In this document: piece by piece, positions 3,985 through 60,261 of the stretch | Numbering within the stretch: the first letter of the stretch is position 1 | Layout of the letters: every line of letters begins with the position of its first letter | Source of the DNA: Escherichia coli | GTDB lineage: Bacteria > Pseudomonadota > Gammaproteobacteria > Enterobacterales > Enterobacteriaceae | Assembly (NCBI RefSeq): GCF_048403405.1 | Contig: NZ_CP183136.1 | Direction: 5' to 3' (one strand) | DNA length: 64,000 nucleotides | Notes under the pieces: generated by a model | What the model was told of the DNA's origin: nothing | The model's input: only the letters and a program-made list of their open reading frames with translations | Database searches by the model: none | Made by a program: the position numbers and the translations under genes

Positions 3985-4551
3985 ATGGAACACGGTGCCC
4001 GTTTAAGTACCAGTCGTGTAATGGCCATCGCCTTTATATTTATGTCAGTGCTTATTGTTCTCAGCCTCTCTGTTAACGTCATTCAGGGGGTGAATAACTA
4101 CCGTCTTCAGAATGAGCAACGCACTGCCGTGACGCCAATGGCATTTAATGCCCCCTTTGCCGTGTCACAGAACAGTGCCGACGCCTCTTATTTACAGCAG
4201 ATGGCGCTGTCATTTATTGCCCTCCGTCTGAATGTTTCATCAGAAACCGTCGATGCCTCACATCAGGCGCTTCTGCAATATATCCGCCCGGGCGCACAGA
4301 ACCAGATGAAAGTTATTCTGGCTGAAGAAGCGAAGCGTATTAAAAACGATAACGTGAACTCAGCCTTTTTCCAGACCAGTGTTCGTGTCTGGCCTCAGTA
4401 TGGCCGTGTGGAAATTCGAGGTGTGCTTAAAACCTGGATTGGTGATTCAAAACCTTTCACTGATATCAAACATTACATCCTTATTCTGAAGCGGGAAAAC
4501 GGGGTGACCTGGCTGGATAATTTCGGGGAAACAGACGATGAGAAAAAATAA
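3985..4551 (+). CDS. traE: TraE, pilus assembly protein
   Basis: 188-aa ORF with N-terminal membrane anchor; TraE family; conserved order. Confidence 0.9.
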
Positions 4552-5266
4552 TACGGCAATAATATTCGGCAGCCTGTTTTTTTCCTGCAGCGTGATGGCC
4601 GCAAACGGTACGCTGGCCCCCACCGTGGTGCCAATGGTGAACGGTGGTCAGGCCAGTATTGCCATCAGCAATACCAGCCCGAATCTGTTTACCGTTCCCG
4701 GTGACCGGATTATCGCCGTGAACAGTCTGGATGGTGCCCTGACCAATAATGAGCAGACCGCCTCCGGCGGTGTGGTGGTTGCCACCGTCAACAAAAAGCC
4801 CTTTACGTTCATTCTGGAAACAGAACGTGGTCTGAATCTTTCCATTCAGGCCGTTCCCCGTGAAGGCGCGGGGCGTACCATTCAGCTGGTCAGTGACCTG
4901 CGCGGAACCGGAGAAGAAGCCGGTGCGTGGGAAACGTCCACGCCTTACGAATCCCTGCTTGTGACCATCAGCCAGGCCGTCCGTGGCGGAAAATTACCCG
5001 CAGGCTGGTATCAGGTCCCAGTGACAAAGGAAACCCTGCAGGCCCCGGCGGGGCTGTCTTCAGTGGCAGATGCCGTATGGACGGGGAATCACCTGAAGAT
5101 GGTCCGCTTTGCCGTGGAAAATAAAACGCTGTCTGCCCTGAATATCCGGGAAAGTGACTTCTGGCAGCCGGGAACCCGTGCCGTGATGTTCAGCCAGCCT
5201 GCCAGCCAGTTACTGGCAGGTGCGCGCATGGATGTGTATGTCATCCGTGACGGGGAGGGCAACTGA
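4538..5266 (+). CDS. traK: TraK, secretin-like T4SS component
   Basis: 242-aa ORF with signal peptide; overlaps traE and traB as in F. Confidence 0.9.
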
Positions 5267-6693
5267 TGGCCAGTATCAATACCATTGTGAAACGCAAGCA
5301 GTACCTGTGGCTGGGGATTGTGGTTGTCGGTACAGCCTCCGCGATTGGTGGGGCACTGTATCTGTCTGATGTGGACATGTCCGGTAACGGTGAAACCGTG
5401 GCTGAACAGGAGCCTGTGCCGGATATGACCGGTGTGGTGGATACGACCTTTGATGACAAGGTGCGTCAGCATGCCACCACCGAGATGCAGGTGACGGCAG
5501 CGCAGATGCAGAAGCAGTATGAGGAAATCCGTCGTGAGCTGGATGTTCTGAACAAACAGCGCGGTGATGACCAGCGTCGTATTGAAAAGTTGGGACAGGA
5601 CAATGCCGCCCTGGCAGAGCAGGTAAAAGCCCTGGGTGCTAATCCCGTCACGGCGACCGGTGAGCCTGTACCGCAGATGCCTGCCTCACCGCCCGGCCCG
5701 GAAGGCGAACCACAGCCAGGAAACACCCCCGTATCCTTCCCGCCGCAGGGCAGCGTTGCTGTTCCACCGCCGACGGCGTTTTATCCCGGGAATGGTGTCA
5801 CGCCACCACCACAGGTGACGTACCAGTCTGTGCCGGTGCCTAACCGGATACAGCGTAAGGTGTTTACCCGTAATGAGGGAAAACAGGGACCATCACTGCC
5901 GTACATTCCGTCAGGAAGTTTTGCGAAAGCCATGCTGATTGAAGGGGCGGATGCCAATGCCTCTGTCACCGGTAATGAATCCACGGTGCCGATGCAGCTG
6001 CGTATCACCGGCCTGGTGGAAATGCCGAACAGCAAGACGTATGACGCAACGGGATGTTTTGTGGGTCTGGAAGCCTGGGGGGATGTGTCCAGTGAGCGTG
6101 CCATTGTACGCACCCGCAATATCAGTTGCCTGAAGGACGGCAAAACTATTGATATGCCGATTAAGGGGCATGTCAGCTTCCGGGGTAAAAACGGTATCAA
6201 GGGCGAAGTGGTGATGCGTAACGGCAAAATCCTCGGCTGGGCATGGGGCGCGGGATTTGTTGACGGTATCGGTCAGGGAATGGAGCGCGCCTCCCAGCCG
6301 GCTGTCGGGCTGGGTGCCACAGCCGCTTACGGGGCTGGTGATGTCCTGAAAATGGGTATCGGTGGCGGCGCATCGAAAGCCGCACAGACGCTCAGTGACT
6401 ACTACATCAAACGTGCCGAACAGTATCACCCGGTGATACCGATTGGTGCGGGCAACGAAGTGACCGTGGTGTTCCAGGACGGCTTCCAGCTGAAAACCGT
6501 GGAAGAGATGGCGCTGGAACGCACGCAGAGCAGAGCGGAAGAAGACAATCCGGAAAGTCCGGTTCCTGTTCCGCCATCGGCTGAAAGTCATCTTAACGGC
6601 TTTAATACTGACCAGATGCTGAAGCAGCTGGGCAACCTGAATCCGCAGCAGTTTATGTCCGGCAGCCAGGGAGGGGGCAACGATGGCAAATAA
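5266..6693 (+). CDS. traB: TraB, T4SS inner-membrane component (VirB10-like)
   Basis: 475-aa ORF with a proline-rich region and C-terminal conserved domain. Confidence 0.9.
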   Translation: MASINTIVKRKQYLWLGIVVVGTASAIGGALYLSDVDMSGNGETVAEQEPVPDMTGVVDTTFDDKVRQHATTEMQVTAAQMQKQYEEIRRELDVLNKQRGDDQRRIEKLGQDNAALAEQVKALGANPVTATGEPVPQMPASPPGPEGEPQPGNTPVSFPPQGSVAVPPPTAFYPGNGVTPPPQVTYQSVPVPNRIQRKVFTRNEGKQGPSLPYIPSGSFAKAMLIEGADANASVTGNESTVPMQLRITGLVEMPNSKTYDATGCFVGLEAWGDVSSERAIVRTRNISCLKDGKTIDMPIKGHVSFRGKNGIKGEVVMRNGKILGWAWGAGFVDGIGQGMERASQPAVGLGATAAYGAGDVLKMGIGGGASKAAQTLSDYYIKRAEQYHPVIPIGAGNEVTVVFQDGFQLKTVEEMALERTQSRAEEDNPESPVPVPPSAESHLNGFNTDQMLKQLGNLNPQQFMSGSQGGGNDGK

Positions 6694-33257: not shown

Positions 33258-34118
33258 ATGAAAATTACGGATCACAAACTCTCTGAAGGTATTGCCCTGA
33301 CATTTCGTGTTCCTGAAGGAAATATAAAACATCCTTTGATTATCTTATGCCATGGGTTTTGCGGTATCAGGAATGTTCTGCTCCCTTGCTTTGCGAATGC
33401 CTTCACAGAAGCAGGATTCGCAACGATTACTTTTGATTATCGAGGATTCGGTGAGAGTGATGGAGAACGAGGGCGTCTGGTTCCTGCAATGCAGACCGAA
33501 GATATTATTTCAGTTATCAATTGGGCAGAAAAGCAGGAATGTATTGATAATCAGCGTATTGGGTTATGGGGAACATCGCTGGGAGGGGGGCATGTCTTCA
33601 GTGCAGCTGCGCAGGACCAACGCGTAAAATGTATTGTCAGCCAGCTGGCTTTTGCTGACGGTGATGTTCTGGTTACCGGAGAGATGAATGAATCGGAGAG
33701 AGCGTCTTTTCTGTCCACGCTGAATAAAATGGCAGAGAAGAAGAAAAACACCGGGAAAGAGATGTTTGTGGGGGTTACCCGGGTACTGAGTGATAATGAA
33801 TCAAAGGTATTCTTCGAGAAGGTAAAAGGTCAGTATCCTGAAATGGATATAAAAATACCTTTCCTTACGGTTATGGAGACGTTGCAATATAAACCGGCAG
33901 AGAGCGCAGCCAAAGTACAGTGCCCAGTTTTGATTGTTATTGCCGGCCAGGATAGTGTTAATCCACCAGAACAGGGAAAAGCCTTATATGATGCTGTTGC
34001 TTCTGGTACTAAGGAATTATACGAGGAAGCTGACGCATGCCATTATGATATTTATGAAGGCGCGTTTTTTGAACGTGTGGCGGCAGTACAGACGCAATGG
34101 TTTAAAAAACATCTTTAA
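33258..34118 (+). CDS. Alpha/beta-fold hydrolase
   Basis: 286-aa ORF with GTSLGG nucleophile-elbow motif; a hydrolase is common between traX and finO in IncF backbones. Confidence 0.75.
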   Translation: MKITDHKLSEGIALTFRVPEGNIKHPLIILCHGFCGIRNVLLPCFANAFTEAGFATITFDYRGFGESDGERGRLVPAMQTEDIISVINWAEKQECIDNQRIGLWGTSLGGGHVFSAAAQDQRVKCIVSQLAFADGDVLVTGEMNESERASFLSTLNKMAEKKKNTGKEMFVGVTRVLSDNESKVFFEKVKGQYPEMDIKIPFLTVMETLQYKPAESAAKVQCPVLIVIAGQDSVNPPEQGKALYDAVASGTKELYEEADACHYDIYEGAFFERVAAVQTQWFKKHL

Positions 34119-50167: not shown

Positions 50168-50335
50168 TTATAAAACTCCTTATGGTGTTTTTTTGGTGTT
50201 TGTTTGGGTGTGTTTTGGGCTTTAAATGGGTTTATTTGTCAAGTTTACCCCATTTTAACTATCAATCAATGATTATTTGTCTTGTTTTGGTGTTTTGTTG
50301 GGCTTGGTATGGGTTGTTTTTGGGTTTTGTTTGGC
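50168..50335. promoter_or_regulatory. parC: parC-like centromere/promoter region
   Basis: Clustered short direct repeats (GGTGTTTT/GGGTGTGTTTTGG-type) upstream of parM; boundaries approximate. Confidence 0.55.
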
Positions 50336-50347
50336 GGATAACAAAAG

Positions 50348-50660
50348 ATGTCGCCGGGCTCCTCTTTTTACTGCGCCGGCTGACGCGGCGCGGCATAAAC
50401 GCTGCCTGTGGTCAGTGTCCCGCGTCCGGTGGGCACGGGACGGGCGCTTTTACCGCTCCCGGCTGGCGTCGGTGACAGTGTACGCCAGCCTGTCGCCCTT
50501 TTCTGATGAACGCCCTTCAAGCCGCTTTCGCGGCATAGCCTTGCCGTCAGAAAGACGACGGCTGCGGTATTCCACGGTCGGCCTGACCCGTTACCGGACG
50601 CGGTGAACAGCCCACAGGCAGCGGGGAACGGGCGCCACAGGGGCGCCCTCCCGATGCTCC
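50348..50660 (+). repeat. Large repeat, family A copy 1 (about 315 bp, GC-rich, structured); candidate Frpo-type single-strand promoter
   Basis: Near-identical to 51652-51970; ORF-track entries 50277-50606 and 51567-51911 are the same sequence translated. Confidence 0.7.
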
Positions 50661-50661
50661 T

Positions 50662-51603
50662 GTGAGGATAATTCCCATGCCAAACTGGTGCTCGAATCGT
50701 ATGTATTTTTCTGGTGAACCGGCACAGATCGCTGAGATTAAACGACTGGCCAGCGGTGCAGTCACACCGCTTTATCGCCGCGCCACAAATGAAGGTATTC
50801 AGCTGTTTCTGGCCGGAAGTGCCGGACTTCTGCAGATCACTGAAAATATCCGCTCTGAGCAGTGCCCCGGAGTGACGGCTGCCGGACGTGGTGCTGTATC
50901 ACTGGAAAATATCGCGTTCACCCGCTGGCTGACACACCTGCAGAACGGTGTACTGCTGGATGAGCAAAACTGCCTGATGCTGCATGAACTCTGGCTGCAG
51001 AGCGGTACTGGACAGCGTCGCTGGGAAGGGTTACCGGATGATGTCAGGGAAACTATCACTGTGCATTTCACCGCAAAAAGAGGTGACTGGTGTGACATCT
51101 GGGGTAACGAGGATGTATCGGTGTGGTGGAACCGTCTGTGTGACAACGTACTGCCGGAAAAAACCATGCCGTTTGACCTGCTGACGGTTTTGCCGACCCG
51201 CCTGGATATTGAAGTGAATGGCTTTAACGGCGGTGTTCTGAACGGTGTTCCTTCTGCATATCACTGGTATACAGAACGGTATGGCGTGAAGTGGCCTTGT
51301 GGGTATGACCTGAATATCAGCAGTCAGGGGGAAAACTTCATTCAGGTGGATTTCGACACGCCGTGGTGTCAGCCGGAAAGCGACGTTGTTGCAGAATTAA
51401 GCCGCCGTTTCGGCTGCACGCTGGAGCACTGGTACGCCGAACAGGGCTGCAATTTCTGTGGCTGGCAGTTGTATGAGCGCGGAGAGCTTGTTGATGTGCT
51501 GTGGGGGGAACTGGAATGGTCTTCCCCGACAGATGACGATGAGCTGCCGGAAGTCACCGGACCTGCGTGGATAGTCGACAATGTGACGCATTATGGCGGA
51601 TGA
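50662..51603 (+). CDS. Hypothetical leading-region protein, 313 aa (possibly DUF1281-like)
   Basis: Clean ORF between the two family-A repeat copies; family name from recall only. Confidence 0.55.
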   Translation: MRIIPMPNWCSNRMYFSGEPAQIAEIKRLASGAVTPLYRRATNEGIQLFLAGSAGLLQITENIRSEQCPGVTAAGRGAVSLENIAFTRWLTHLQNGVLLDEQNCLMLHELWLQSGTGQRRWEGLPDDVRETITVHFTAKRGDWCDIWGNEDVSVWWNRLCDNVLPEKTMPFDLLTVLPTRLDIEVNGFNGGVLNGVPSAYHWYTERYGVKWPCGYDLNISSQGENFIQVDFDTPWCQPESDVVAELSRRFGCTLEHWYAEQGCNFCGWQLYERGELVDVLWGELEWSSPTDDDELPEVTGPAWIVDNVTHYGG

Positions 51604-51651
51604 AGTATGACGGAGACGGGCGGGCAACCGCCCGTTTCTTTTCCGACAAAG

Positions 51652-51970
51652 GATGTCGCCGTGCTCCTCTTTTTACTGCGCCGGCTGACGCGGCGCGGCA
51701 TAAACGCTGCCTGTGGTCAGTGTCCCGCGTCCGGCGGGCACGGGGCGGGCGCTTTTACCGCTCCCGGCTGGCGTCGGTGACAGTGTACGCCAGCCCGTCG
51801 CCCTTTTCTGATGAACGCCCTTCAAGCCGCTTTCGCGGCATAACCTTGCCGTCAAAAAGACGACGGCTGCGGTATTCCACGGTCGGCCTGACCCGTTACC
51901 GGACGCGGTGAACAGCCCACAGGCAGCGGGGAACGGGCACCACAGGGGTGCCCTCCCGGTGCCCTCTGTA
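51652..51970 (+). repeat. Large repeat, family A copy 2; candidate single-strand promoter upstream of the methyltransferase operon
   Basis: Near-identical to 50348-50660. Confidence 0.7.
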
Positions 51971-51986: not shown

Positions 51987-52670
51987 ATGTCCCGTTTTGT
52001 CCTCGGTAACTGCATCGATGTTATGGCCCGTATTCCTGATAACGCCATTGATTTCATCCTCACCGACCCGCCATATCTCGTCGGTTTCCGTGACCGTTCC
52101 GGGCGCACCATCGCCGGCGATAAAACCGATGAGTGGCTGCAACCGGCCTGTAATGAAATGTTCCGCGTGCTGAAAAAAGACGCGTTAATGGTGAGCTTCT
52201 ACGGCTGGAACCGCGTCGATCGCTTTATGGCCGCCTGGAAAAATGCGGGATTCAGCGTTGTTGGTCACCTGGTCTTCACCAAAAACTATACATCGAAGGC
52301 CGCATATGTGGGCTATCGCCACGAATGCGCCTACATCCTGGCAAAAGGCCGTCCACGTCTGCCACAAAACCCGCTGCCGGACGTGCTGGGCTGGAAATAT
52401 TCGGGCAATCGCCATCACCCGACGGAAAAGCCCGTTACCAGCCTGCAACCGCTGATTGAGAGCTTCACACACCCGAACGCAATTGTGCTGGACCCGTTTG
52501 CAGGCAGCGGCTCAACCTGCGTCGCCGCCCTCCAGTCCGGACGCCGGTATATCGGTATCGAGCTGCTTGAGCAGTATCACCGTGCCGGGCAGCAACGCCT
52601 TGCCGCCGTGCAACGGGCCATGCAGCAGGGGGCCGCGAATGATAACTGGTTTATGCCGGAGGCTGCGTAA
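51987..52670 (+). CDS. Orphan DNA amino-methyltransferase (N6-adenine or N4-cytosine)
   Basis: DPPY catalytic motif followed by FAGSGST AdoMet motif; no adjacent restriction endonuclease ORF. Confidence 0.85.
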   Translation: MSRFVLGNCIDVMARIPDNAIDFILTDPPYLVGFRDRSGRTIAGDKTDEWLQPACNEMFRVLKKDALMVSFYGWNRVDRFMAAWKNAGFSVVGHLVFTKNYTSKAAYVGYRHECAYILAKGRPRLPQNPLPDVLGWKYSGNRHHPTEKPVTSLQPLIESFTHPNAIVLDPFAGSGSTCVAALQSGRRYIGIELLEQYHRAGQQRLAAVQRAMQQGAANDNWFMPEAA

Positions 52671-52892
52671 ATGAACTATGCAGGACACGAAAAACTGCGC
52701 GCCGAAGTGGCGGAGGTGGCCAATGCCATGTGCGACCTGCGTACAACCATGAATGAGATGGAGCAGCGGTACAGCTTTAATGCCGACACCCTGCCGGAAC
52801 GTCTGGTGCGTCAGACGCTGTTTCGCGCAAACCGCCTCCTGATGGAGGCATATACCGAAATTCTGGAACTGGATGCGTGCTTTAAAGATTGA
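52671..52892 (+). CDS. Hypothetical small protein
   Basis: 73-aa ORF immediately after the methyltransferase gene. Confidence 0.5.
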   Translation: MNYAGHEKLRAEVAEVANAMCDLRTTMNEMEQRYSFNADTLPERLVRQTLFRANRLLMEAYTEILELDACFKD

Positions 52893-52905
52893 GAAGGAGA
52901 CGAGA

Positions 52906-53340
52906 ATGTACGGAACATGCGAAACGCTATGCCGGGAGCTGGCAGTAAAGTATCCGGGAGACATGCCGCTGATGCTGGTTATCTGGTCCCCGGAAGAGAT
53001 TCAGGCCCTCGCTGACGGAATGGATATTTCCCTGTCCGATCATGAAATCAGAACCGTCCTGGCGCGCCTGGAGGACATCCCGGAAGACCAGCGGACTGAA
53101 TCCGGTATTTCTTCCGGCGTGGCGATGGAGATCATCAATAACGTGAGCGAAAACCGCCAGGTGACCGTCCCTGCTGAACTGCTGGCGTCCCTGATTCAGA
53201 CCGCTGAACAGGCATTGTGGAAACGTGAATGGGCCGCCCGGGATCATGGCCTCGCCGTCCCGGAATGCGTCACCCGCCGTCAGGCGGTGATTAATCAGGC
53301 CCGCACCCTGCTGAAAAACAACAGACACGAAAACGACTGA
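52906..53340 (+). CDS. Hypothetical protein (DUF1380-like), paralogue of 55048-55467
   Basis: Shares MY.T..E...E and RQVTVPA motifs with the paralogue; start chosen at the MYGTCETL methionine. Confidence 0.55.
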   Translation: MYGTCETLCRELAVKYPGDMPLMLVIWSPEEIQALADGMDISLSDHEIRTVLARLEDIPEDQRTESGISSGVAMEIINNVSENRQVTVPAELLASLIQTAEQALWKREWAARDHGLAVPECVTRRQAVINQARTLLKNNRHEND

Positions 53341-53385
53341 TGTTATCGCCGCCTCCGGGCGGCGATTCAGGGAGAACGATTAATC

Positions 53386-54162
53386 ATGAACGAAAACACA
53401 ACGCTGAACGCACTGATTTGTCGCCACGCCCGTAACCTGCTGCTGGCGCAGGGCTGGCCGGAAGAGACGGATGTTGACCAGCGAAATCCGAACCATCCGG
53501 GCTGGATCAGCATTTACGTGCGGCTGGATGCGCCCCGGCTGGCGACGTTACTTATCAACCGTCACGGCGGCGTACTGCCGCCGGTCCTGGCGTCTGCCAT
53601 GCAAAAACTGACCGGAACCGTGGCGGAACTTGTACTGTCCGGCAGCCAGTGGCAGGCGCTGCCGGTACTTCCGGCAGACGGAACGCAGGTGTTTTTCCCG
53701 TATGCCGGTGAATGGCTGACGGAGGAAGAAATCAGGGCAGTTCTTGATGCGGTGCGCAATGCAGTACGAAGCATCTGTTACCAGGTGGCAGACGATGCGC
53801 GGCGTATCCGGGCGGCGCTGACCACCACCGGTCAGACGTTGCTGACCCGGCAGACGCGCCGCTTTCGTCTGGTTGTGAAGGAAAGCGATTACCCCTGCTG
53901 GCTTGATGAAGATGACGAAAATCTGCCCGTGGTGCTCGATGCCATTCTGAACCGTGGCGCCCGTTTTTCCTCTGTGGAAATGTACCTGGTCTGTGAGTGT
54001 GTGGAGCATATCCTGGCCAGTGGTCTGGTCTGTGATGTGCTGCGTATACCGGATGAACCGTCCCGTCGCTGGTTTGACAGGGATATTCTGCGGGAGGTTG
54101 TTCTGGAGGCACGGGATGAAATCCGCAGCATGGCGGATGCACTGGCGAAAATCAGGGGCTGA
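53386..54162 (+). CDS. Hypothetical leading-region protein, 258 aa
   Basis: Clean ORF in the same-strand array. Confidence 0.5.
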
Positions 54163-54575
54163 TGATGGCGGGGAAAATCCCCGCCTTTTTCCTGCCGGTC
54201 CCCGGACAGAGCACAAAGGAAGTCGCCGCCGGCTCCGCTTTACCCGGCCATGCGGGGCATGGCCTTGTGGGGGTTCAGTTATGTGGCCTCAGCGTCGTGT
54301 GCGGGCTGTGCCGTGCCTCCATCGTAGCCGGGCTTCTGCGGGCGGGTTGCAAGGTAAGGTGAACCGCTGCGGTCACCCGGTCCCTCCTTCCCGTCTGCCG
54401 TGATTTTCCGGTCGTTCACCCGCTCAGATTTCGCGGTCTCACCCTCCAACTCCCGCCAGCCGTGTGCGTCAGGCTGCGGCTTCCCTTGCGCCCTTGCAAC
54501 CCTGCAGGCCCGGCAAAGATGGAGGCACGGCACCGCCCGGTGTCGCGGAATATGTGAACAACGGAGGAAAACATC

Positions 54576-55001
54576 ATGCAATATGCGAAACCTGTCACTC
54601 TGAACGTTGAAGAGTGTGACCGTCTCTCCTTTCTGCCTTACCTGTTTGGCAACGATTTTCTGTATGCCGAGGCGTATGTGTACGCGCTGGCGCAAAAAAT
54701 GATGCCGGAATATCAGGGAGGCTTCTGGCATTTCATCCGCCTGCCGGACGGTGGCGGTTACATGATGCCGGATGGCGACCGTTTTCATCTGGTCAACGGT
54801 GAAAACTGGTTTGACCGCACTGTGAGTGCTGATGCCGCAGGTATCATCCTGACTTCCCTTGTGATTAACCGCCAGTTGTGGCTGTACCACGACAGCGGGG
54901 ATGCGGGACTGACACACCTTTACCGGATGCGCGATGCGCAGTTGTGGCGTCACATCGAATTTCACCCCGAATGCAATGCGATTTACGCGGCACTGGACTG
55001 A
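54576..55001 (+). CDS. Antirestriction protein of the ArdB/KlcA family (likely)
   Basis: 141-aa ORF with size and sequence character of KlcA-type proteins; family from recall only. Confidence 0.6.
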
Positions 55002-55047
55002 TTAACGGACGGGGCGGCGATGCCGCCCCTGTAAAGGAGACGAGAAC

Positions 55048-55467
55048 ATGTACTGTACTGTTAAAGAAATTATCCGCGAAGTGCTGGATACAGACGTGCC
55101 GGACAGTGAATGCGTTTTTGCCGTGGTGCTGACCCGTGGGGATGTGCGTCACATAGCCCAGGACTGGAGTCTGACAGACGATGAGCTGGAAACCGTCATG
55201 CAGCGGCTGGACGATGCCTTTGAGCATGGTGCTGATGTCAGCATTGTTCACGACGTTGTTTGTGAACTGATGGAAGAAAAGCGCGCCAGCCGTCAGGTGA
55301 CAGTCCCGGCGGTGATGCTGGAAAAAGTGATGGCGCTGGCAGGCAGTGAAATGAAGCGCCTGTATGCCGTCGGGAGTGAGAACGGGGGCGACGGTGACGC
55401 ATTTGTCAGGGAAGAACGTGAGATTATGCGGGTGATGCGTCAGGCGCTGGACGGGGAGAATGGGTAA
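55048..55467 (+). CDS. Hypothetical protein (DUF1380-like), paralogue of 52906-53340
   Basis: 139-aa ORF sharing motifs with the paralogue. Confidence 0.55.
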   Translation: MYCTVKEIIREVLDTDVPDSECVFAVVLTRGDVRHIAQDWSLTDDELETVMQRLDDAFEHGADVSIVHDVVCELMEEKRASRQVTVPAVMLEKVMALAGSEMKRLYAVGSENGGDGDAFVREEREIMRVMRQALDGENG

Positions 55468-55658
55468 TGAATATCAGCAAGGAAACCCGCGAAATTCTGC
55501 GTAATTACAGGGCCGTGATTAATGCGCGGCGTCGTGAAATGGGGCAGAAACCGCTCACCACCGCGCAGATTGTTGATGAAATATGTGATTTTGTGGTGAA
55601 TCAGCAGGCTGTTTTCCTCGGTGGTCACTACATCCTTCAGGGCAGCAGGCACAGGTGA
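55467..55658 (+). CDS. Hypothetical small protein
   Basis: 63-aa ORF overlapping the upstream stop codon. Confidence 0.4.
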   Translation: MNISKETREILRNYRAVINARRREMGQKPLTTAQIVDEICDFVVNQQAVFLGGHYILQGSRHR

Positions 55659-55789
55659 TACAGGGCAGGCGGTGGAGGCCGCCTGTCAGCCCGCGCGAAA
55701 ACCCCTGGCAGGCTGGCGCCTGCCGGAAGGGAAGCGGGCCACGCTGGCGCGTCGCCCGTTACCCTTCCCGTTTGTGATGTGTCCGGAAT

Positions 55790-56395
55790 GTTTTTTCCTG
55801 ATGTTATGTTTCTGTGGTTACTGTTCTTCTTCTTCCTCTTCTTTCCGTTCCTCTCCTGTTTATGCCTTTTCCGGGCGTCCCCCTGGCGGGGCGGGCTGTC
55901 GTGAACGGAGCCAGCGGAGCTGTCTCCGCCCTGGCGGGCTTCCATCCCTGACGCAAAACCCCGGGTTTGCAGCGACCGGAACGGTCGCGCCACCCCTGTC
56001 GCGCCGTGGCCTGCGCTCCCGGCATCCCGGCAAAAAGACGCCGGGATGTAAGGAGCAACGCCGTTTCGCAAACCGCGCTTCACGTCGTTGCAGCGGGTCC
56101 CTGCTCATTGCCTGCCGGGTGCCACACACCCGTATGAGTCCCTGTCGCCGGGGGCTGATACAGCCACAACCTGCCGCACTGACTGTCCAGGGTAAATGAA
56201 CAGCCCACAAAATTTTTTACCCAAAACCCGGTAAAAAATTTTGCGTTCTGCCCAGGACAGGTGCGTCAGGCCGTGGCAGTGATGCCCCTTGCGGCGAAGG
56301 TTCTCAAACGGGTGAAGTTCATACCACAGGGAATACAGCAGCAGGTTCCCGCGAAACGTCAAAACCGCGGCTCCCGAAACTCAACGGGTGATGTT
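55790..56395 (+). repeat. Large repeat, family B copy 1 (about 600 bp); Frpo-type single-strand promoter candidate
   Basis: Long near-identity with 59040-59695, including hairpin CAAAATTTTTTACCC..GGGTAAAAAATTTTG. Confidence 0.7.
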
Positions 56396-56625
56396 CTTTA
56401 AAAATCAGGATTTATTTCAGGCTCCGGCAATACGCATTTATGTGTTCTGTCAGTCATCCGGCTGGCAGGTAATGAAAACGCAGGAACAGAAGGAGGAAAA
56501 CACCGGAAAGCGTCAGATGCAGATATGAAAAAAAGCAGGTCAGGGACCTGCTTAATCCACGCCGTAAGAATTGTGCGACCAATTTTGACGGCATTGTTAA
56601 CCAATTTGTCATAAGGAATCCATTT

Positions 56626-56856
56626 ATGACTGTAAGCATTGTTTCACCTTCCGCAGCGGCTGTAAAGCCCCGCCGTCATCCCCGTTTCAGACGCGAAGAC
56701 ATCCCCGCGCCGGAACTTGACCCCGTGCTGAAAGCCTTCGGGCGACACATTGCCCGGAGTTTTCGCCGGGGGCGTGGTGTACACATCCCCGCCATGAAAA
56801 ACACGGCCTTCGGGCAGGTGCTCCGCACACTCGAACTGAAACGCGCTTTTAACTGA
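56626..56856 (+). CDS. Hypothetical small basic protein
   Basis: 76-aa ORF, first after the family-B repeat. Confidence 0.4.
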   Translation: MTVSIVSPSAAAVKPRRHPRFRREDIPAPELDPVLKAFGRHIARSFRRGRGVHIPAMKNTAFGQVLRTLELKRAFN

Positions 56857-56907
56857 TGAGGTGAGCCGCCCCGCGAGGGGCGGCAACAGACGGAAGGAGA
56901 ACATTTT

Positions 56908-58269
56908 ATGACATTAGCAGCAATCACCATGACCGCCCCGGAAGCCGCCAGCCCGGTGCAGATGTACCGCGCGACCTACTCACCGGATGACAACAAACTG
57001 CGCCTGTATGCCGTGTCACGTCTTGACCCGGAGACGTATAAAAAAGTGCATGATGCCGGTTTTCGCTGGGCACCAGAACAGGCGCTGTTTGTGGCTCCAG
57101 CCTGGACACCGGGCCGGGAAGACGTGCTCCTCTCACTTGCCGGAGAGATTGAGGATGAAGACAGCACGCTCGCTGAACGTCAGGAAGCACGGGCGGAGCG
57201 GTTTACCGGATACAGCGGAAAGCGGGCCAGTGAATCCGCACAGGCACTTGATGAAGTGGAAAGACTGGCCGCGATGATCCCGCCCGGTCAGCCCATTCTT
57301 GTGGGGCATCACAGCGAACGCCGCGCCCGTCGTGATGCGCAGCGTATTGAAAACGGCATGAAACGTGCCGTGATGCTCTTTGAACGTGCGGAATACTGGG
57401 AAGAACGTGCGCGGTCGGCACTGCTTCACGCGAAGTATAAAGAACGTCCGGACGTTCGCTGGCGTCGTATCAAAAAAATCGAAGCTGATTTGCGCAAGGC
57501 TGAAAAGACCATCGCACAGTCGCAGAAATATCTGACGATGTGGCGGGCTGAATCGCTGGATCTGAATATGGCAAAACTCATCAGCAGTCATGACCATATC
57601 AGCGCCTGTTTCCCGCTGGATACGTATCCGCGCCCGGCAGAAAAAAGCCAGTATGAAGGAAGTCGATCGTTATGGTCGGCCCTGGATGATGACATCATCA
57701 CCACGGAGCAGGCCCGCGAAATTGCGATCCGCTGTCATGAACGGCAGATTCAGCATCAGCAACGCTGGGTTAACCACTATCAGAACCGCCTGATCTATGA
57801 GCGTGCCATGCTGGACGAAAGCGGCGGCGTGGTTACCCGGACACAGGATTTTGAGCCGGGCGGACAGGTTTTCAGCCGGGGCGAGTGGCTGACCATCATC
57901 CGCGTGAACAAAAGCAACGGGGCGGTGAGTTCAGTCACAACGCCGAATTACAGTTTTCTCGGGTACAGCGGCACGATGAAAGTGACGCCCGATCGCATCA
58001 CGGACTACAAAGCACCATCGGCAGAAGAGGCTGCCGTCGCCAGCCAGGCCGCGAAGCGTCCGCCGGTAGTCAACTATCCGGGGGAAGGTTTCCGGGAAAT
58101 GACAAAGGCGCAGTGGGCCGCCCTGCCCCGGGACTGTAAGGCCGTGCGCAGTGTGGCAGAGACAGAAGACCACGGGGCATACCGCTACCGCCGCACAATG
58201 GACAATAATTTCCGCCTGGTGAATGTGTATATCACCGACATGAAAATCACGGAAATCCCGCAGAAATAA
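56908..58269 (+). CDS. Hypothetical leading-region protein, 453 aa
   Basis: Clean ORF with coiled-coil-like central region; no domain recognised. Confidence 0.55.
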   Translation: MTLAAITMTAPEAASPVQMYRATYSPDDNKLRLYAVSRLDPETYKKVHDAGFRWAPEQALFVAPAWTPGREDVLLSLAGEIEDEDSTLAERQEARAERFTGYSGKRASESAQALDEVERLAAMIPPGQPILVGHHSERRARRDAQRIENGMKRAVMLFERAEYWEERARSALLHAKYKERPDVRWRRIKKIEADLRKAEKTIAQSQKYLTMWRAESLDLNMAKLISSHDHISACFPLDTYPRPAEKSQYEGSRSLWSALDDDIITTEQAREIAIRCHERQIQHQQRWVNHYQNRLIYERAMLDESGGVVTRTQDFEPGGQVFSRGEWLTIIRVNKSNGAVSSVTTPNYSFLGYSGTMKVTPDRITDYKAPSAEEAAVASQAAKRPPVVNYPGEGFREMTKAQWAALPRDCKAVRSVAETEDHGAYRYRRTMDNNFRLVNVYITDMKITEIPQK

Positions 58270-58315
58270 GGTATATCCCCCCGGGAAATCCCCGGGGGAT
58301 GACGGAGATAATGAT

Positions 58316-58879
58316 ATGCACAGTCAGTTAAAAGAACGTATCCGGCTGATGCGCGCAAGGCTGGATAACGCCGCGCCGGTTGCTGAAATCCGGGCTGAAT
58401 CTCAGCTTTTTGTGACTCCTGCCCCGGTCTGTGATCGCCTGGTGACGCTGGCGGAGATCAGCAACCGTGATCACATTCTGGAACCCTCTGCCGGCACCGG
58501 GGCCATACTGCGGGCGATTCGTCATGTCGCGCCGGGGGCCATGTGTGATGCGGTGGAGATTAACAGCGGGCTGGTCCGGTATCTGCGGGATAATTTTAAC
58601 GGTGTCAGGGTTCAGTGTGGCGACTTCATGGAATGGCAGCCGGTGCAGTATTACAGCCGGATTATCATGAATCCGCCGTTCAGTCACGGGCAGGATATCC
58701 GGCATATCCTGCGGGCTTTTTCCCTGTTGCGTCCGGGTGGTGTGCTGGTTGCCGTCTGTCTGAACGGGCCGCGCCAGCAGGAGAAGCTGTTACCGTTTTC
58801 TGATGTCCGCGAGGTGCTGCCGTGCGGCACATTTGCTTATACCCGTGTTCCGACGATGATTATTCGTCTGCGTGCCTGA
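58316..58879 (+). CDS. Small orphan AdoMet-dependent methyltransferase (probable DNA amino-methyltransferase)
   Basis: EPSAGTG AdoMet motif and NPPF catalytic motif; no adjacent endonuclease. Confidence 0.75.
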   Translation: MHSQLKERIRLMRARLDNAAPVAEIRAESQLFVTPAPVCDRLVTLAEISNRDHILEPSAGTGAILRAIRHVAPGAMCDAVEINSGLVRYLRDNFNGVRVQCGDFMEWQPVQYYSRIIMNPPFSHGQDIRHILRAFSLLRPGGVLVAVCLNGPRQQEKLLPFSDVREVLPCGTFAYTRVPTMIIRLRA

Positions 58880-59039: not shown

Positions 59040-59695
59040 ACTGATGATGTTGTTGTTCCTGCTACTGCTACTGCTACTGCTACTGCTACTGCTACTGCTA
59101 CTGCTACTGCTACTGTTCTTCTTTTTTCTGCTGCTCTGATTACTGTCTGTTTTGTTGTTCTCCTGCTTATGCCTTTTCCGGGCGTCCCCCTGGCGGGGCG
59201 GGCTGTCGTGAACGGAGCCAGCGGAGCTGTCTCCGCCCTGGCGGGCTTCCATCCCTGACGCAAAAACCCGGGTTTGCAGCGACCGGAACGGTCGCGCCAC
59301 CCTTGTCGCGCCGTGGCCTGCGCTCCCGGCATCCCGGCAAAAGACGCCGGGATGTAAGGAGCAACGCCGTTTCGCAAACCGCGCTTCACGTCGTTGCGGC
59401 GGGTCCCTGCCCGTTGTTCTGTCCGGTGCCATTCACCTGTTTAAGCCCCTGTCGCCGGGGGCATAGACAGCCACAACCTGCCGCACTGACTGTCCAGGGT
59501 AAATGAACAGCCCACAAAATTTTTTACCCAAAACCCGGTAAAAAATTTTGCGTTCTGCCCAGGACAGGTGCGTCAGGCCGTGGCAGTGATGCCCCATGCG
59601 GCGAAGGTTCTCAAACAGGTGATGGTGAATACCGGAGGGAACAAAAGGCAGGTCCCCGCAAAACGTCAAAACCGCGGCTCCCGAAACTCAACAGA
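59040..59695 (+). repeat. Large repeat, family B copy 2, upstream of ssb; Frpo-type single-strand promoter candidate
   Basis: Near-identical to 55790-56395 apart from the hexanucleotide tract and a short variable segment. Confidence 0.7.
59059..59115 (+). repeat. Hexanucleotide microsatellite (CTGCTA), about 9.5 units
   Basis: Read directly; absent from the paralogous repeat copy, which has an irregular pyrimidine tract instead. Confidence 0.9.
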
Positions 59696-59733
59696 TGATG
59701 GGGGCTGAAAACATCAACAGAAGGAGACACATC

Positions 59734-60261
59734 ATGGCAGTTCGTGGCATTAACAAGGTCATTCTTGTCGGTCGTCTGGGAAAAGATCCGGAAGTCCGTT
59801 ACATCCCCAACGGGGGCGCAGTGGCAAACCTGCAGGTGGCCACGTCAGAAACCTGGCGCGACAAACAGACGGGGGAAATGAAGGAGCAGACGGAATGGCA
59901 CCGCGTGGTGCTGTTCGGCAAGCTCGCGGAAGTGGCAGGTGAATATCTGCGTAAGGGGGCGCAGGTCTACATTGAAGGCCAGCTTCGCACCCGTAGCTGG
60001 GAAGATAACGGTATTACCCGTTACGTCACCGAAATCCTTGTTAAAACCACGGGCACCATGCAGATGCTGGGGAGTGCACCACAGCAGAACGCTCAGGTGC
60101 AACCGCAGCCTCAGCAGAATGGTCAGTCACAGAGTGCTGACGCGACGAAAAAAGGGAGCGCGAAAACGAAAGGCCGTGGACGTAAGGCTGCGCAGCCGGA
60201 GCCTCAGCCGCAACCACCGGAGGGGGAGGATTACGGGTTTTCAGACGATATCCCGTTCTGA
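59734..60261 (+). CDS. ssb: Plasmid single-stranded DNA-binding protein
   Basis: 175-aa ORF with SSB fold sequence and acidic C-terminal tail DDIPF; ATG at 59734 within ORF 59695-60261. Confidence 0.95.

Follow-up and report, generated by a model that had tools for sequence, protein, structure and literature searches.

A stretch of 64,000 nucleotides (nt) of Escherichia coli DNA (contig NZ_CP183136.1), referred to below as the window, carries two methyltransferase genes of different architecture, here called MTase1 and MTase2. The part of the window from 50 to 64 kb is an ordinary leading region of an IncFII conjugative plasmid. Our reading is that MTase1 is an enzyme of the M.EcoGIX type driven by a class-3 single-stranded DNA (ssDNA) promoter, and that MTase2, together with the DUF3560 protein YdbA encoded upstream of it, would constitute a second methyltransferase of the entry phase, driven by a copy of the Frpo promoter. 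We give this reading a probability of about 0.6. Comparison with fused homologues indicates that MTase2 is the catalytic C-terminal half of a DUF3560-methyltransferase, which is split into adjacent cistrons in this plasmid. The ydbA and MTase2 genes are linked as a pair, as documented below, and this explicit connection between MTase2 and the upstream DUF3560 gene is the sole new element of the analysis. The genes of the module are:

56626 to 56856, + strand: ydaB, a 76-amino-acid (aa) open reading frame (ORF) and the first cistron of the MTase2 operon (from the pMccB17 gene table).
56908 to 58269, + strand: YdbA, a DUF3560 protein of 453 aa (PF12083, E 1.1e-36), the putative partner half of the split DUF3560-methyltransferase.
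58316 to 58879, + strand: MTase2, an NPPF class I methyltransferase core of 187 aa with gamma-type motif order.

The evidence for this link comes from the relatives of MTase2. MTase2 has 9908 relatives among the 1.84 billion representative proteins searched, and 112 representatives with less than 60% identity were examined. A DUF3560 region matching YdbA is found in 66 of these 112 distant representatives (59%; E down to 1e-142; median length 619 aa), and DUF3560 is N-terminal and the methyltransferase C-terminal in all 66 fusions. When YdbA and MTase2 are concatenated, they align as one collinear segment with P0151, a fusion of 670 aa, at 43.7% identity (E 6e-164), and the split point falls in the disordered Pro/Ala-rich interdomain linker of the fusions. 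Additionally, a tblastn search with a fusion protein found DUF3560 and methyltransferase genes side by side in at least 5000 plasmids, with 2549 Klebsiella plasmids among those listed. Judged from these comparisons, a single DUF3560-methyltransferase polypeptide appears to be the ancestral and most common form.

MTase2 has the motifs QLFVTP at residues 30-35, EPSAGTG at 56 and NPPF at 119, i.e., motifs X, I and IV in the order of the gamma class. The residues Q30, F32, P35, E56, P57, G60, T61, G62, N119, P121 and F122 are invariant in 24 homologues with identities down to 51%. Pfam returns weak generic class I matches (MTS, E 4.9e-6; RrnaAD, E 3.5e-4) and no significant match to a DNA methylase family (N6_Mtase, E 0.65), and none of 41 fusion relatives reached N6_Mtase or Eco57I at E 0.001. 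In the AlphaFold model (predicted local distance difference test, pLDDT, 88) MTase2 is a bare Rossmann-fold catalytic core after one helix, and the chain stops at residue 187, directly after the last core strand, with no C-terminal target-recognition domain. The best match in the PDB is M.TaqI, both by sequence and by Foldseek. Both proteins have the order FxTP, S-adenosylmethionine (AdoMet) loop and NPP(F/Y) and a Rossmann-fold catalytic domain, to which the alignment is confined (residues 22-122, 26-31% identity), whereas M.TaqI also has a C-terminal DNA-recognition domain of about 180 aa that MTase2 lacks. As MTase2 is without such a domain, its specificity must be minimal or supplied by YdbA.

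Among named profiles, the strongest match of MTase2 is to mad2 of PADLOC (E 3.5e-20, residues 28-186), followed by several Type II methyltransferase models. Mad2 belongs to the MADS defence system, where it is required for N6-methyladenine (m6A) in DNA at TCAGNNNNTCC (bioRxiv 10.1101/2023.03.30.534895). However, Mad2 has 492 aa including extra N-terminal sequence and is encoded in an eight-gene defence operon, while MTase2 has 187 aa and its role would be counter-defence. The neighbouring ORFs matched no PADLOC model, i.e., MTase2 is not surrounded by a mad1-mad8 operon.

An FxTP motif preceding motif I is typical of gamma-class DNA N6-adenine enzymes. We conclude that MTase2 is a putative exocyclic-amino methyltransferase of nucleic acid, and DNA adenine is predicted as its most likely substrate. 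Its sequence and fold would fit either a DNA or an RNA substrate, and no experimental characterisation of MTase2 was found in the literature. The alternative that survives best, although we consider it unlikely, is that MTase2, with or without YdbA, methylates RNA or protein (ribosomal RNA, transfer RNA, or glutamine or lysine residues) and thereby reprograms translation or a host factor during establishment. The top-ranked Pfam and NCBIfam families for MTase2 (MTS, RrnaAD, Erm, KsgA and PrmC) leave such a substrate open, as does the mixed list obtained with the MTase2 family profile against PDB sequences. However, these families score far below their cutoffs, and MTase2 belongs neither to Erm (34 bits vs a cutoff of 212) nor to KsgA (26.9 vs 171). 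Furthermore, its strongest named relatives, M.TaqI and mad2, are DNA enzymes, it has FxTP before motif I, and its gene neighbourhood is one of DNA entry and anti-restriction. Phage homologues are annotated as DNA methylases, and one of the fusions contains a beta-clamp domain. This fusion (P0214, 1018 aa, metagenomic) combines the C-terminal domain of the DNA polymerase III beta clamp (Pfam E 2e-6) with DUF3560 and the methyltransferase, which hints at a link to the replisome, reminiscent of the association of M.EcoGIX with DNA polymerase I.

The MTase2-type domain is encoded in 230 phage genomes. Homologues of it occur in gene 1 of Shewanella phage X14 (8223 nt) and in gp43 of Salisaeta phage SSIP-1 (6960 nt, annotated as 'structural protein'), where they are embedded in giant proteins of about 2300-2700 aa, and a Pseudomonas phage match is annotated as a PLxRFG-domain protein. 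The catalytic module is thus seen both in DUF3560 fusions of plasmids and integrative elements and in giant phage virion proteins, which are maybe ejected with the genome. By analogy, this suggests that an MTase2-type module may be delivered with phage DNA, in parallel to early expression from a plasmid. The surroundings of the fused form vary. In a Pseudomonas plasmid it adjoins ssb, DUF932, a cytosine methyltransferase, kleA and radC. Of four metagenomic fusions looked up, three lie on short contigs where the adjacent genes are unannotated, and P0151 alone was informative, with radC, an integrase and a resolvase as neighbours.

The first of the two methyltransferases is a close relative of a characterised enzyme. 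Its operon comprises the following features:

51987 to 52670, + strand: MTase1, a beta-class N6-adenine DNA methyltransferase of 227 aa, orthologue of M.EcoGIX, YfeA (F) and YfbB (R64).
52671 to 54162, + strand: the rest of the MTase1 operon, i.e., a 73-aa ORF, a DUF1380 protein (52873-53340) and a YchA-type protein of 258 aa (53386-54162), in the same order in pESBL and F.
54167 to 54185, + strand: a terminator-like GC hairpin with a T run, which closes the operon.

MTase1 has DPPY at residue 27 and FAGSG at 171, and motif IV before motif I is the order of the beta class. It matches Pfam N6_N4_Mtase (PF01555) with E 1.8e-38 over model positions 1-219 of 221, and NCBIfam PRK13699 over its full length with 499.6 bits (cutoff 244). 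An earlier interpretation of this DNA, which we call the sequence-only reading, had placed both ORFs and described their motifs correctly (DPPY then FxGxG-type, here FAGSG; the AdoMet motif, here EPSAGTG, then NPPF). Its distinction between two amino-methyltransferase architectures also stands, with MTase1 as a beta-class member of PF01555 and MTase2 with gamma-type order and weak generic Pfam matches.

The sole DNA methylase of plasmid pESBL-EA11 is encoded at 54782-55465, an ORF that Yamaichi et al. (2015; PMC4288162) list as M.EcoGIX in their gene table. Over all 227 residues, MTase1 aligns with this enzyme without gaps at 95% identity, with 12 differing residues. The context is the same as well: MTase1 has DPPY and FxGxG, is oriented towards the origin of transfer (oriT), has a 98-99% identical hairpin upstream, and is flanked by DUF1281 upstream and by the 73-aa ORF, DUF1380 and YchA downstream. 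M.EcoGIX and M.BceJIII, both beta-class with a catalytic DPPY, were characterised by Fomenkov et al. (2020; PMC7736820), who reported promiscuous and incomplete m6A formation in the context SAY and on ssDNA only. These enzymes are silent in the donor and expressed from the entering strand (PMC7736820), and M.EcoGIX shields pESBL from EcoGIII and EcoRI, and also when the plasmid passes into Klebsiella (PMC7736820; PMC4288162). IncI1 and IncF plasmids abound in homologues, with YfeA of F being 91% identical (PMC7736820). With 95% identity to M.EcoGIX, the specificity of MTase1 is known by close homology, and it is broad and not tuned to one restriction system. From this identity and the identical context, we infer that MTase1 has the function of M.EcoGIX.

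These properties bear on the model put forward by the sequence-only reading, in which two sequence-specific orphan methylases each copy the modification of a different recipient restriction system. The two differing architectures and the missing endonuclease partner are compatible with it, and phages do have protective orphan methylases of this type, according to Samuel et al. (2024; PMC11541004). However, the near-identical M.EcoGIX recognises only SAY, on single strands and incompletely, and MTase2 has no target-recognition domain, so that a multi-base specificity is unlikely for it unless this comes from YdbA. We therefore regard the model as improbable. What remains of it is the protective methylation itself, since protection on entry is the accepted function for such genes, while the logic of one methylase per restriction system is lost with the promiscuity of M.EcoGIX. 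In the same way, the statement that the specificities are unknown no longer holds for MTase1, given its identity to an enzyme acting on SAY in ssDNA. Both genes are indeed orphans in that they have no restriction partner, but MTase2 is not self-contained, being in all likelihood half of a DUF3560-methyltransferase protein.

In three database proteins (P0021, P0112 and P0113), an N6_N4_Mtase part of the MTase1 type is joined to the C-terminal half of MTase2, as if a deletion had fused the two methyltransferase genes in some plasmids.

The absence of a neighbouring endonuclease, as claimed earlier, was confirmed by running the sense ORFs between 50 and 62 kb against NCBIfam and PADLOC, where no nuclease or restriction model was matched. 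Ten long antisense ORFs (133-282 aa) in the same interval were considered as a possible cognate endonuclease, but none of them matched a defence or nuclease model, and they are probably chance ORFs in GC-rich DNA. With no adjacent restriction endonuclease gene among the ORFs of 50-62 kb, neither methyltransferase belongs to a Type II restriction-modification system.

The AlphaFold2 model of YdbA (pLDDT 91.4) begins with a small domain, continues with long basic helical hairpins and ends in beta domains. The protein had no match among PDB sequences at E up to 1, and searches of NCBIfam and PADLOC were likewise empty. Type IIG enzymes are resembled by the order of N-terminal domain, helical spacer and gamma-type methyltransferase. 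YdbA might accordingly be a hydrolase or nuclease, with DUF3560-methyltransferase as a fused restriction-modification-like or Type IIG-like module. The names of the DUF3560 family derived from UniProt include 'hydrolase' and 'HD superfamily hydrolase', and the G-H-H-S motif at residues 133-136 of YdbA is nearly invariant. Beside this stand the searches above, in which the sense ORFs of the region matched no nuclease model, and we find an enzymatic YdbA very doubtful.

The ydbA and MTase2 genes lie in separate reading frames with 46 nt between them, and MTase2 is preceded by a Shine-Dalgarno sequence of its own, GGAG at 8 nt before the ATG. Intact 187-aa homologues of the split form, 51-67% identical and with invariant catalytic motifs, are found in Escherichia, Salmonella, Serratia, Erwinia, Pantoea and Cedecea. 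The ydbA gene was counted in 4149 plasmids and MTase2 in 4039, with at least 80% of the MTase2 gene present in 3986 of the 4039. Neither F nor pESBL has the ydaB-ydbA-MTase2 module. The different frames, the 46-nt gap and the missing module in F and pESBL could be taken to mean that MTase2 is the inactive remnant of a DUF3560-methyltransferase gene broken by a frameshift or stop, but this is hardly credible given the intact forms in six genera, the GGAG before the ATG, the break exactly at the interdomain linker and the near-complete gene in almost all matching plasmids. A pseudogene origin of the split was therefore rejected on conservation, Shine-Dalgarno sequence and linker position; the own ribosome binding site, the conserved intact homologues and the co-occurrence of the two genes show that the split form is stable and not decaying.

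Returning to the reading of two entry-phase methyltransferases, their expression can be related to two types of repeat in the leading region:

50341 to 50640, - strand: class-3 ssDNA promoter repeat, copy 1, upstream of DUF1281 (yccB); 99% identical to positions 4443-4740 of the pESBL segment (L003), directly upstream of M.EcoGIX.
51646 to 51945, - strand: class-3 ssDNA promoter repeat, copy 2, ending 42 nt before the MTase1 start codon; 98% identical to pESBL.
55807 to 56315, - strand: Frpo-type (class 1) repeat, copy A, preceding the ydaB-ydbA-MTase2 operon; it shares 95.5% identity with the sequence before ssb in F and 85% with the second copy there.
59059 to 59115: the hexanucleotide CTGCTA, repeated perfectly 9.5 times where Frpo copy B has its 5' edge.
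59114 to 59622, - strand: Frpo-type (class 1) repeat, copy B, upstream of ssb.

The two copies of the 300-nt repeat are 97% identical to each other, and they match the sequence preceding M.EcoGIX in pESBL at 98-99% and that preceding yfeA in F at 96% identity. As ssDNA, the template (-) strand of this repeat folds with -102.9 kcal/mol (z-score -7.4 vs shuffled sequence). For the homologous hairpin of pESBL, classified as a "class 3" single-strand promoter, 5' rapid amplification of cDNA ends located a transcription start site (2025 study, PMC12672017). The structure of copy 1 likewise lies in the template (-) strand and would drive genes on the + strand. This copy is an extra promoter hairpin compared to the fetched pESBL and F segments, and with a class-3 hairpin in front of it, DUF1281 may be another gene expressed on entry. 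Both class-3 copies are crossed by ORFs of about 105-115 aa (50277-50606 and 51567-51911; 6096-6407 and 7401-7712 in L001), which RefSeq annotates as 'hypothetical protein' in related plasmids. These are probably annotation artefacts over a structured non-coding promoter.

The copies of the second repeat, of about 510 nt, are 90-96% identical and bracket the ydaB-ydbA-MTase2 module. With the sequence preceding ssb in F they share 95.5% and 92.5% identity, and 85-87% with the second F copy near hok; both F positions are those of Frpo-type class 1 elements. The template (-) strand folds as ssDNA with -141.4 kcal/mol (z-score -9.1 vs shuffled sequence). Single-strand promoters of F and ColIb-P9, known as Frpo or ssi, were reportedly described by Masai and Arai in 1997. 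The class-1 and class-3 repeats of the window resemble the Frpo/ssi promoters of F (classes 1-3 of PMC12672017) in that the template strand is strongly folded. Unlike F, the window plasmid appears to have an additional Frpo copy dedicated to the ydaB-ydbA-MTase2 module. The two methyltransferase genes thus lie in separate repeat-driven operons, as had been proposed, and both repeats, the 300-nt one before MTase1 and the 510-nt one before ydaB-ydbA-MTase2, belong to published ssDNA promoter classes. On the + (coding) strand, the interval 50.0-60.4 kb gave no sigma-70-like promoter. The hexanucleotide array at copy B may be a length-variable tract adjoining the ssDNA promoter; at the equivalent place of copy A (55824-55843) there is (TTC) x 6.7. 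A further fold was observed in the - strand of the intergenic sequence upstream of klcA (54186-54575; -101.1 kcal/mol, z-score -4.2 as ssDNA), which fits the class-2 ssDNA promoter published for klcA and ardA.

An Rfam search gave no family for the ssDNA promoter repeats and a single match in the region:

56530 to 56631, - strand: AS-pc01 antisense RNA ('antisense to pHK01_035'), 79.4 bits vs a gathering score of 79.

This element lies opposite the leader and start codon of ydaB, and is flanked on the - strand by a sigma-70-like promoter (56666-56638) and a terminator-like hairpin (56553-56533). AS-pc01 could silence the MTase2 operon once the plasmid is double-stranded.

The following sequence of events would account for these features. 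Hairpin single-strand promoters would form in the incoming transferred strand (T-strand), which is the - strand here, and the class-3 hairpin would drive transcription of MTase1 as soon as this strand reaches the recipient. MTase1 would then place m6A on many SAY sites of the single strand, which would leave the later duplex with partial protection from restriction enzymes of many kinds. The extra F-type Frpo copy would allow cotranscription of ydaB, ydbA and MTase2, with MTase2 as the catalytic subunit of a second entry-phase methyltransferase. YdbA and MTase2 might act as a complex in which YdbA provides tethering to nucleic acid or to the replisome, and this complex might methylate adenines of the incoming DNA with low sequence specificity, so as to provide a further anti-restriction layer that is mechanistically independent of the first. 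In this scenario the linkage of the gene pair is shown, whereas complex formation, methylation of DNA and a low specificity are each conjectural. As a specific proposal, a two-subunit, promiscuous adenine methyltransferase acting on the entering DNA through a coiled-coil DUF3560 tether, and of a class independent of M.EcoGIX, is therefore tentative, and we hold it with less than even confidence.

The plasmid setting is well known. The window leading region is collinear with F and with the IncI1 plasmid pESBL, in the order parM/stbA, DUF1281, MTase1 operon, klcA/ardB, ydaB, ydbA, MTase2, ssb, DUF905, yfjB (ParB-like) and psiB, and the oriT and traM of F lie downstream of psiB. All leading-region genes face oriT, and can therefore be transcribed from the incoming T-strand. 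This collinearity and orientation bear out the placement of both methyltransferase genes in a leading region. The neighbouring genes outside the two methyltransferase operons include:

50662 to 51603, + strand: DUF1281/YccB-type leading-region protein, annotated so in a 98%-identical plasmid and syntenic in pESBL.
54576 to 55001, + strand: KlcA/ArdB-type antirestriction gene, in the operon after the MTase1 operon.
59695 to 60261, + strand: plasmid ssb, first gene of the ssb-yfjA-yfjB-psiB operon, with which the leading region continues towards oriT.

Judging by the closest relatives, the mcb (microcin B17) operon probably lies upstream of parM. The ORFs at 1-49 kb were sampled by the larger ones, and those inspected are F-type tra genes, finO, IncFII repA and an IS5 transposase. 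Additionally, an ORF at 33258-34118, between traX and finO, matches a model of UilS-family quorum-quenching N-acyl-homoserine lactonases with 508.9 bits (cutoff 400).

The arrangement is not unusual, and a standard IncFII leading region of this kind is known from more than 4000 sequenced plasmids. At least 5000 PLSDB plasmids match the 10-kb segment 50200-60300 at more than 90% identity, and among the matches listed, 2095 cover at least 80% of it. The arrangement is very common, well annotated and previously described. According to Samuel et al. (2024; PMC11541004), orphan methyltransferases are a major functional class of leading regions, and two of them with differing architecture in one leading region is a documented general feature. 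The families listed there include 8 (K07319), 26 (K07317/K00561) and 28 (DUF3560), the last two with 1957 and 1913 members and median ORF positions 11 and 12 from oriT. Families 8, 26 and 28 appear to correspond to genes of the window, which they match in strand and in placement with respect to oriT. That MTase2 is family 26 and YdbA family 28 is our inference, drawn from their annotation, position and size and not from sequences. Family 14 ('putative DNA methyltransferase') was considered for MTase2 and rejected, as the supplementary table gives it as YcjA/YcgC, apparently of the DUF1380 type, and family 26 fits. A table in the same source records, without interpretation, that DUF3560 structurally matches a 'methyltransferase domain protein'. 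The accessible text does not describe DUF3560 and the small methyltransferase as halves of one fusion protein, and it reports no assay of these families.

Leading regions decide the survival of resistance plasmids in the first minutes in a new host. The M.EcoGIX-type role is already established, so MTase1 adds nothing new here. The second early-expressed methyltransferase is present in approximately 4000 sequenced IncF plasmids, and in at least 5000 when the more divergent Klebsiella-type copies are counted, and it is best studied jointly with its DUF3560 partner and not alone. The connection between MTase2 and DUF3560 provides a testable hypothesis for two abundant, uncharacterised leading-region families. 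Should the pair turn out to be another promiscuous methylase of the entry phase, the weakness of restriction as a barrier to the spread of IncF plasmids would be easier to understand, and DUF3560 would gain a function.

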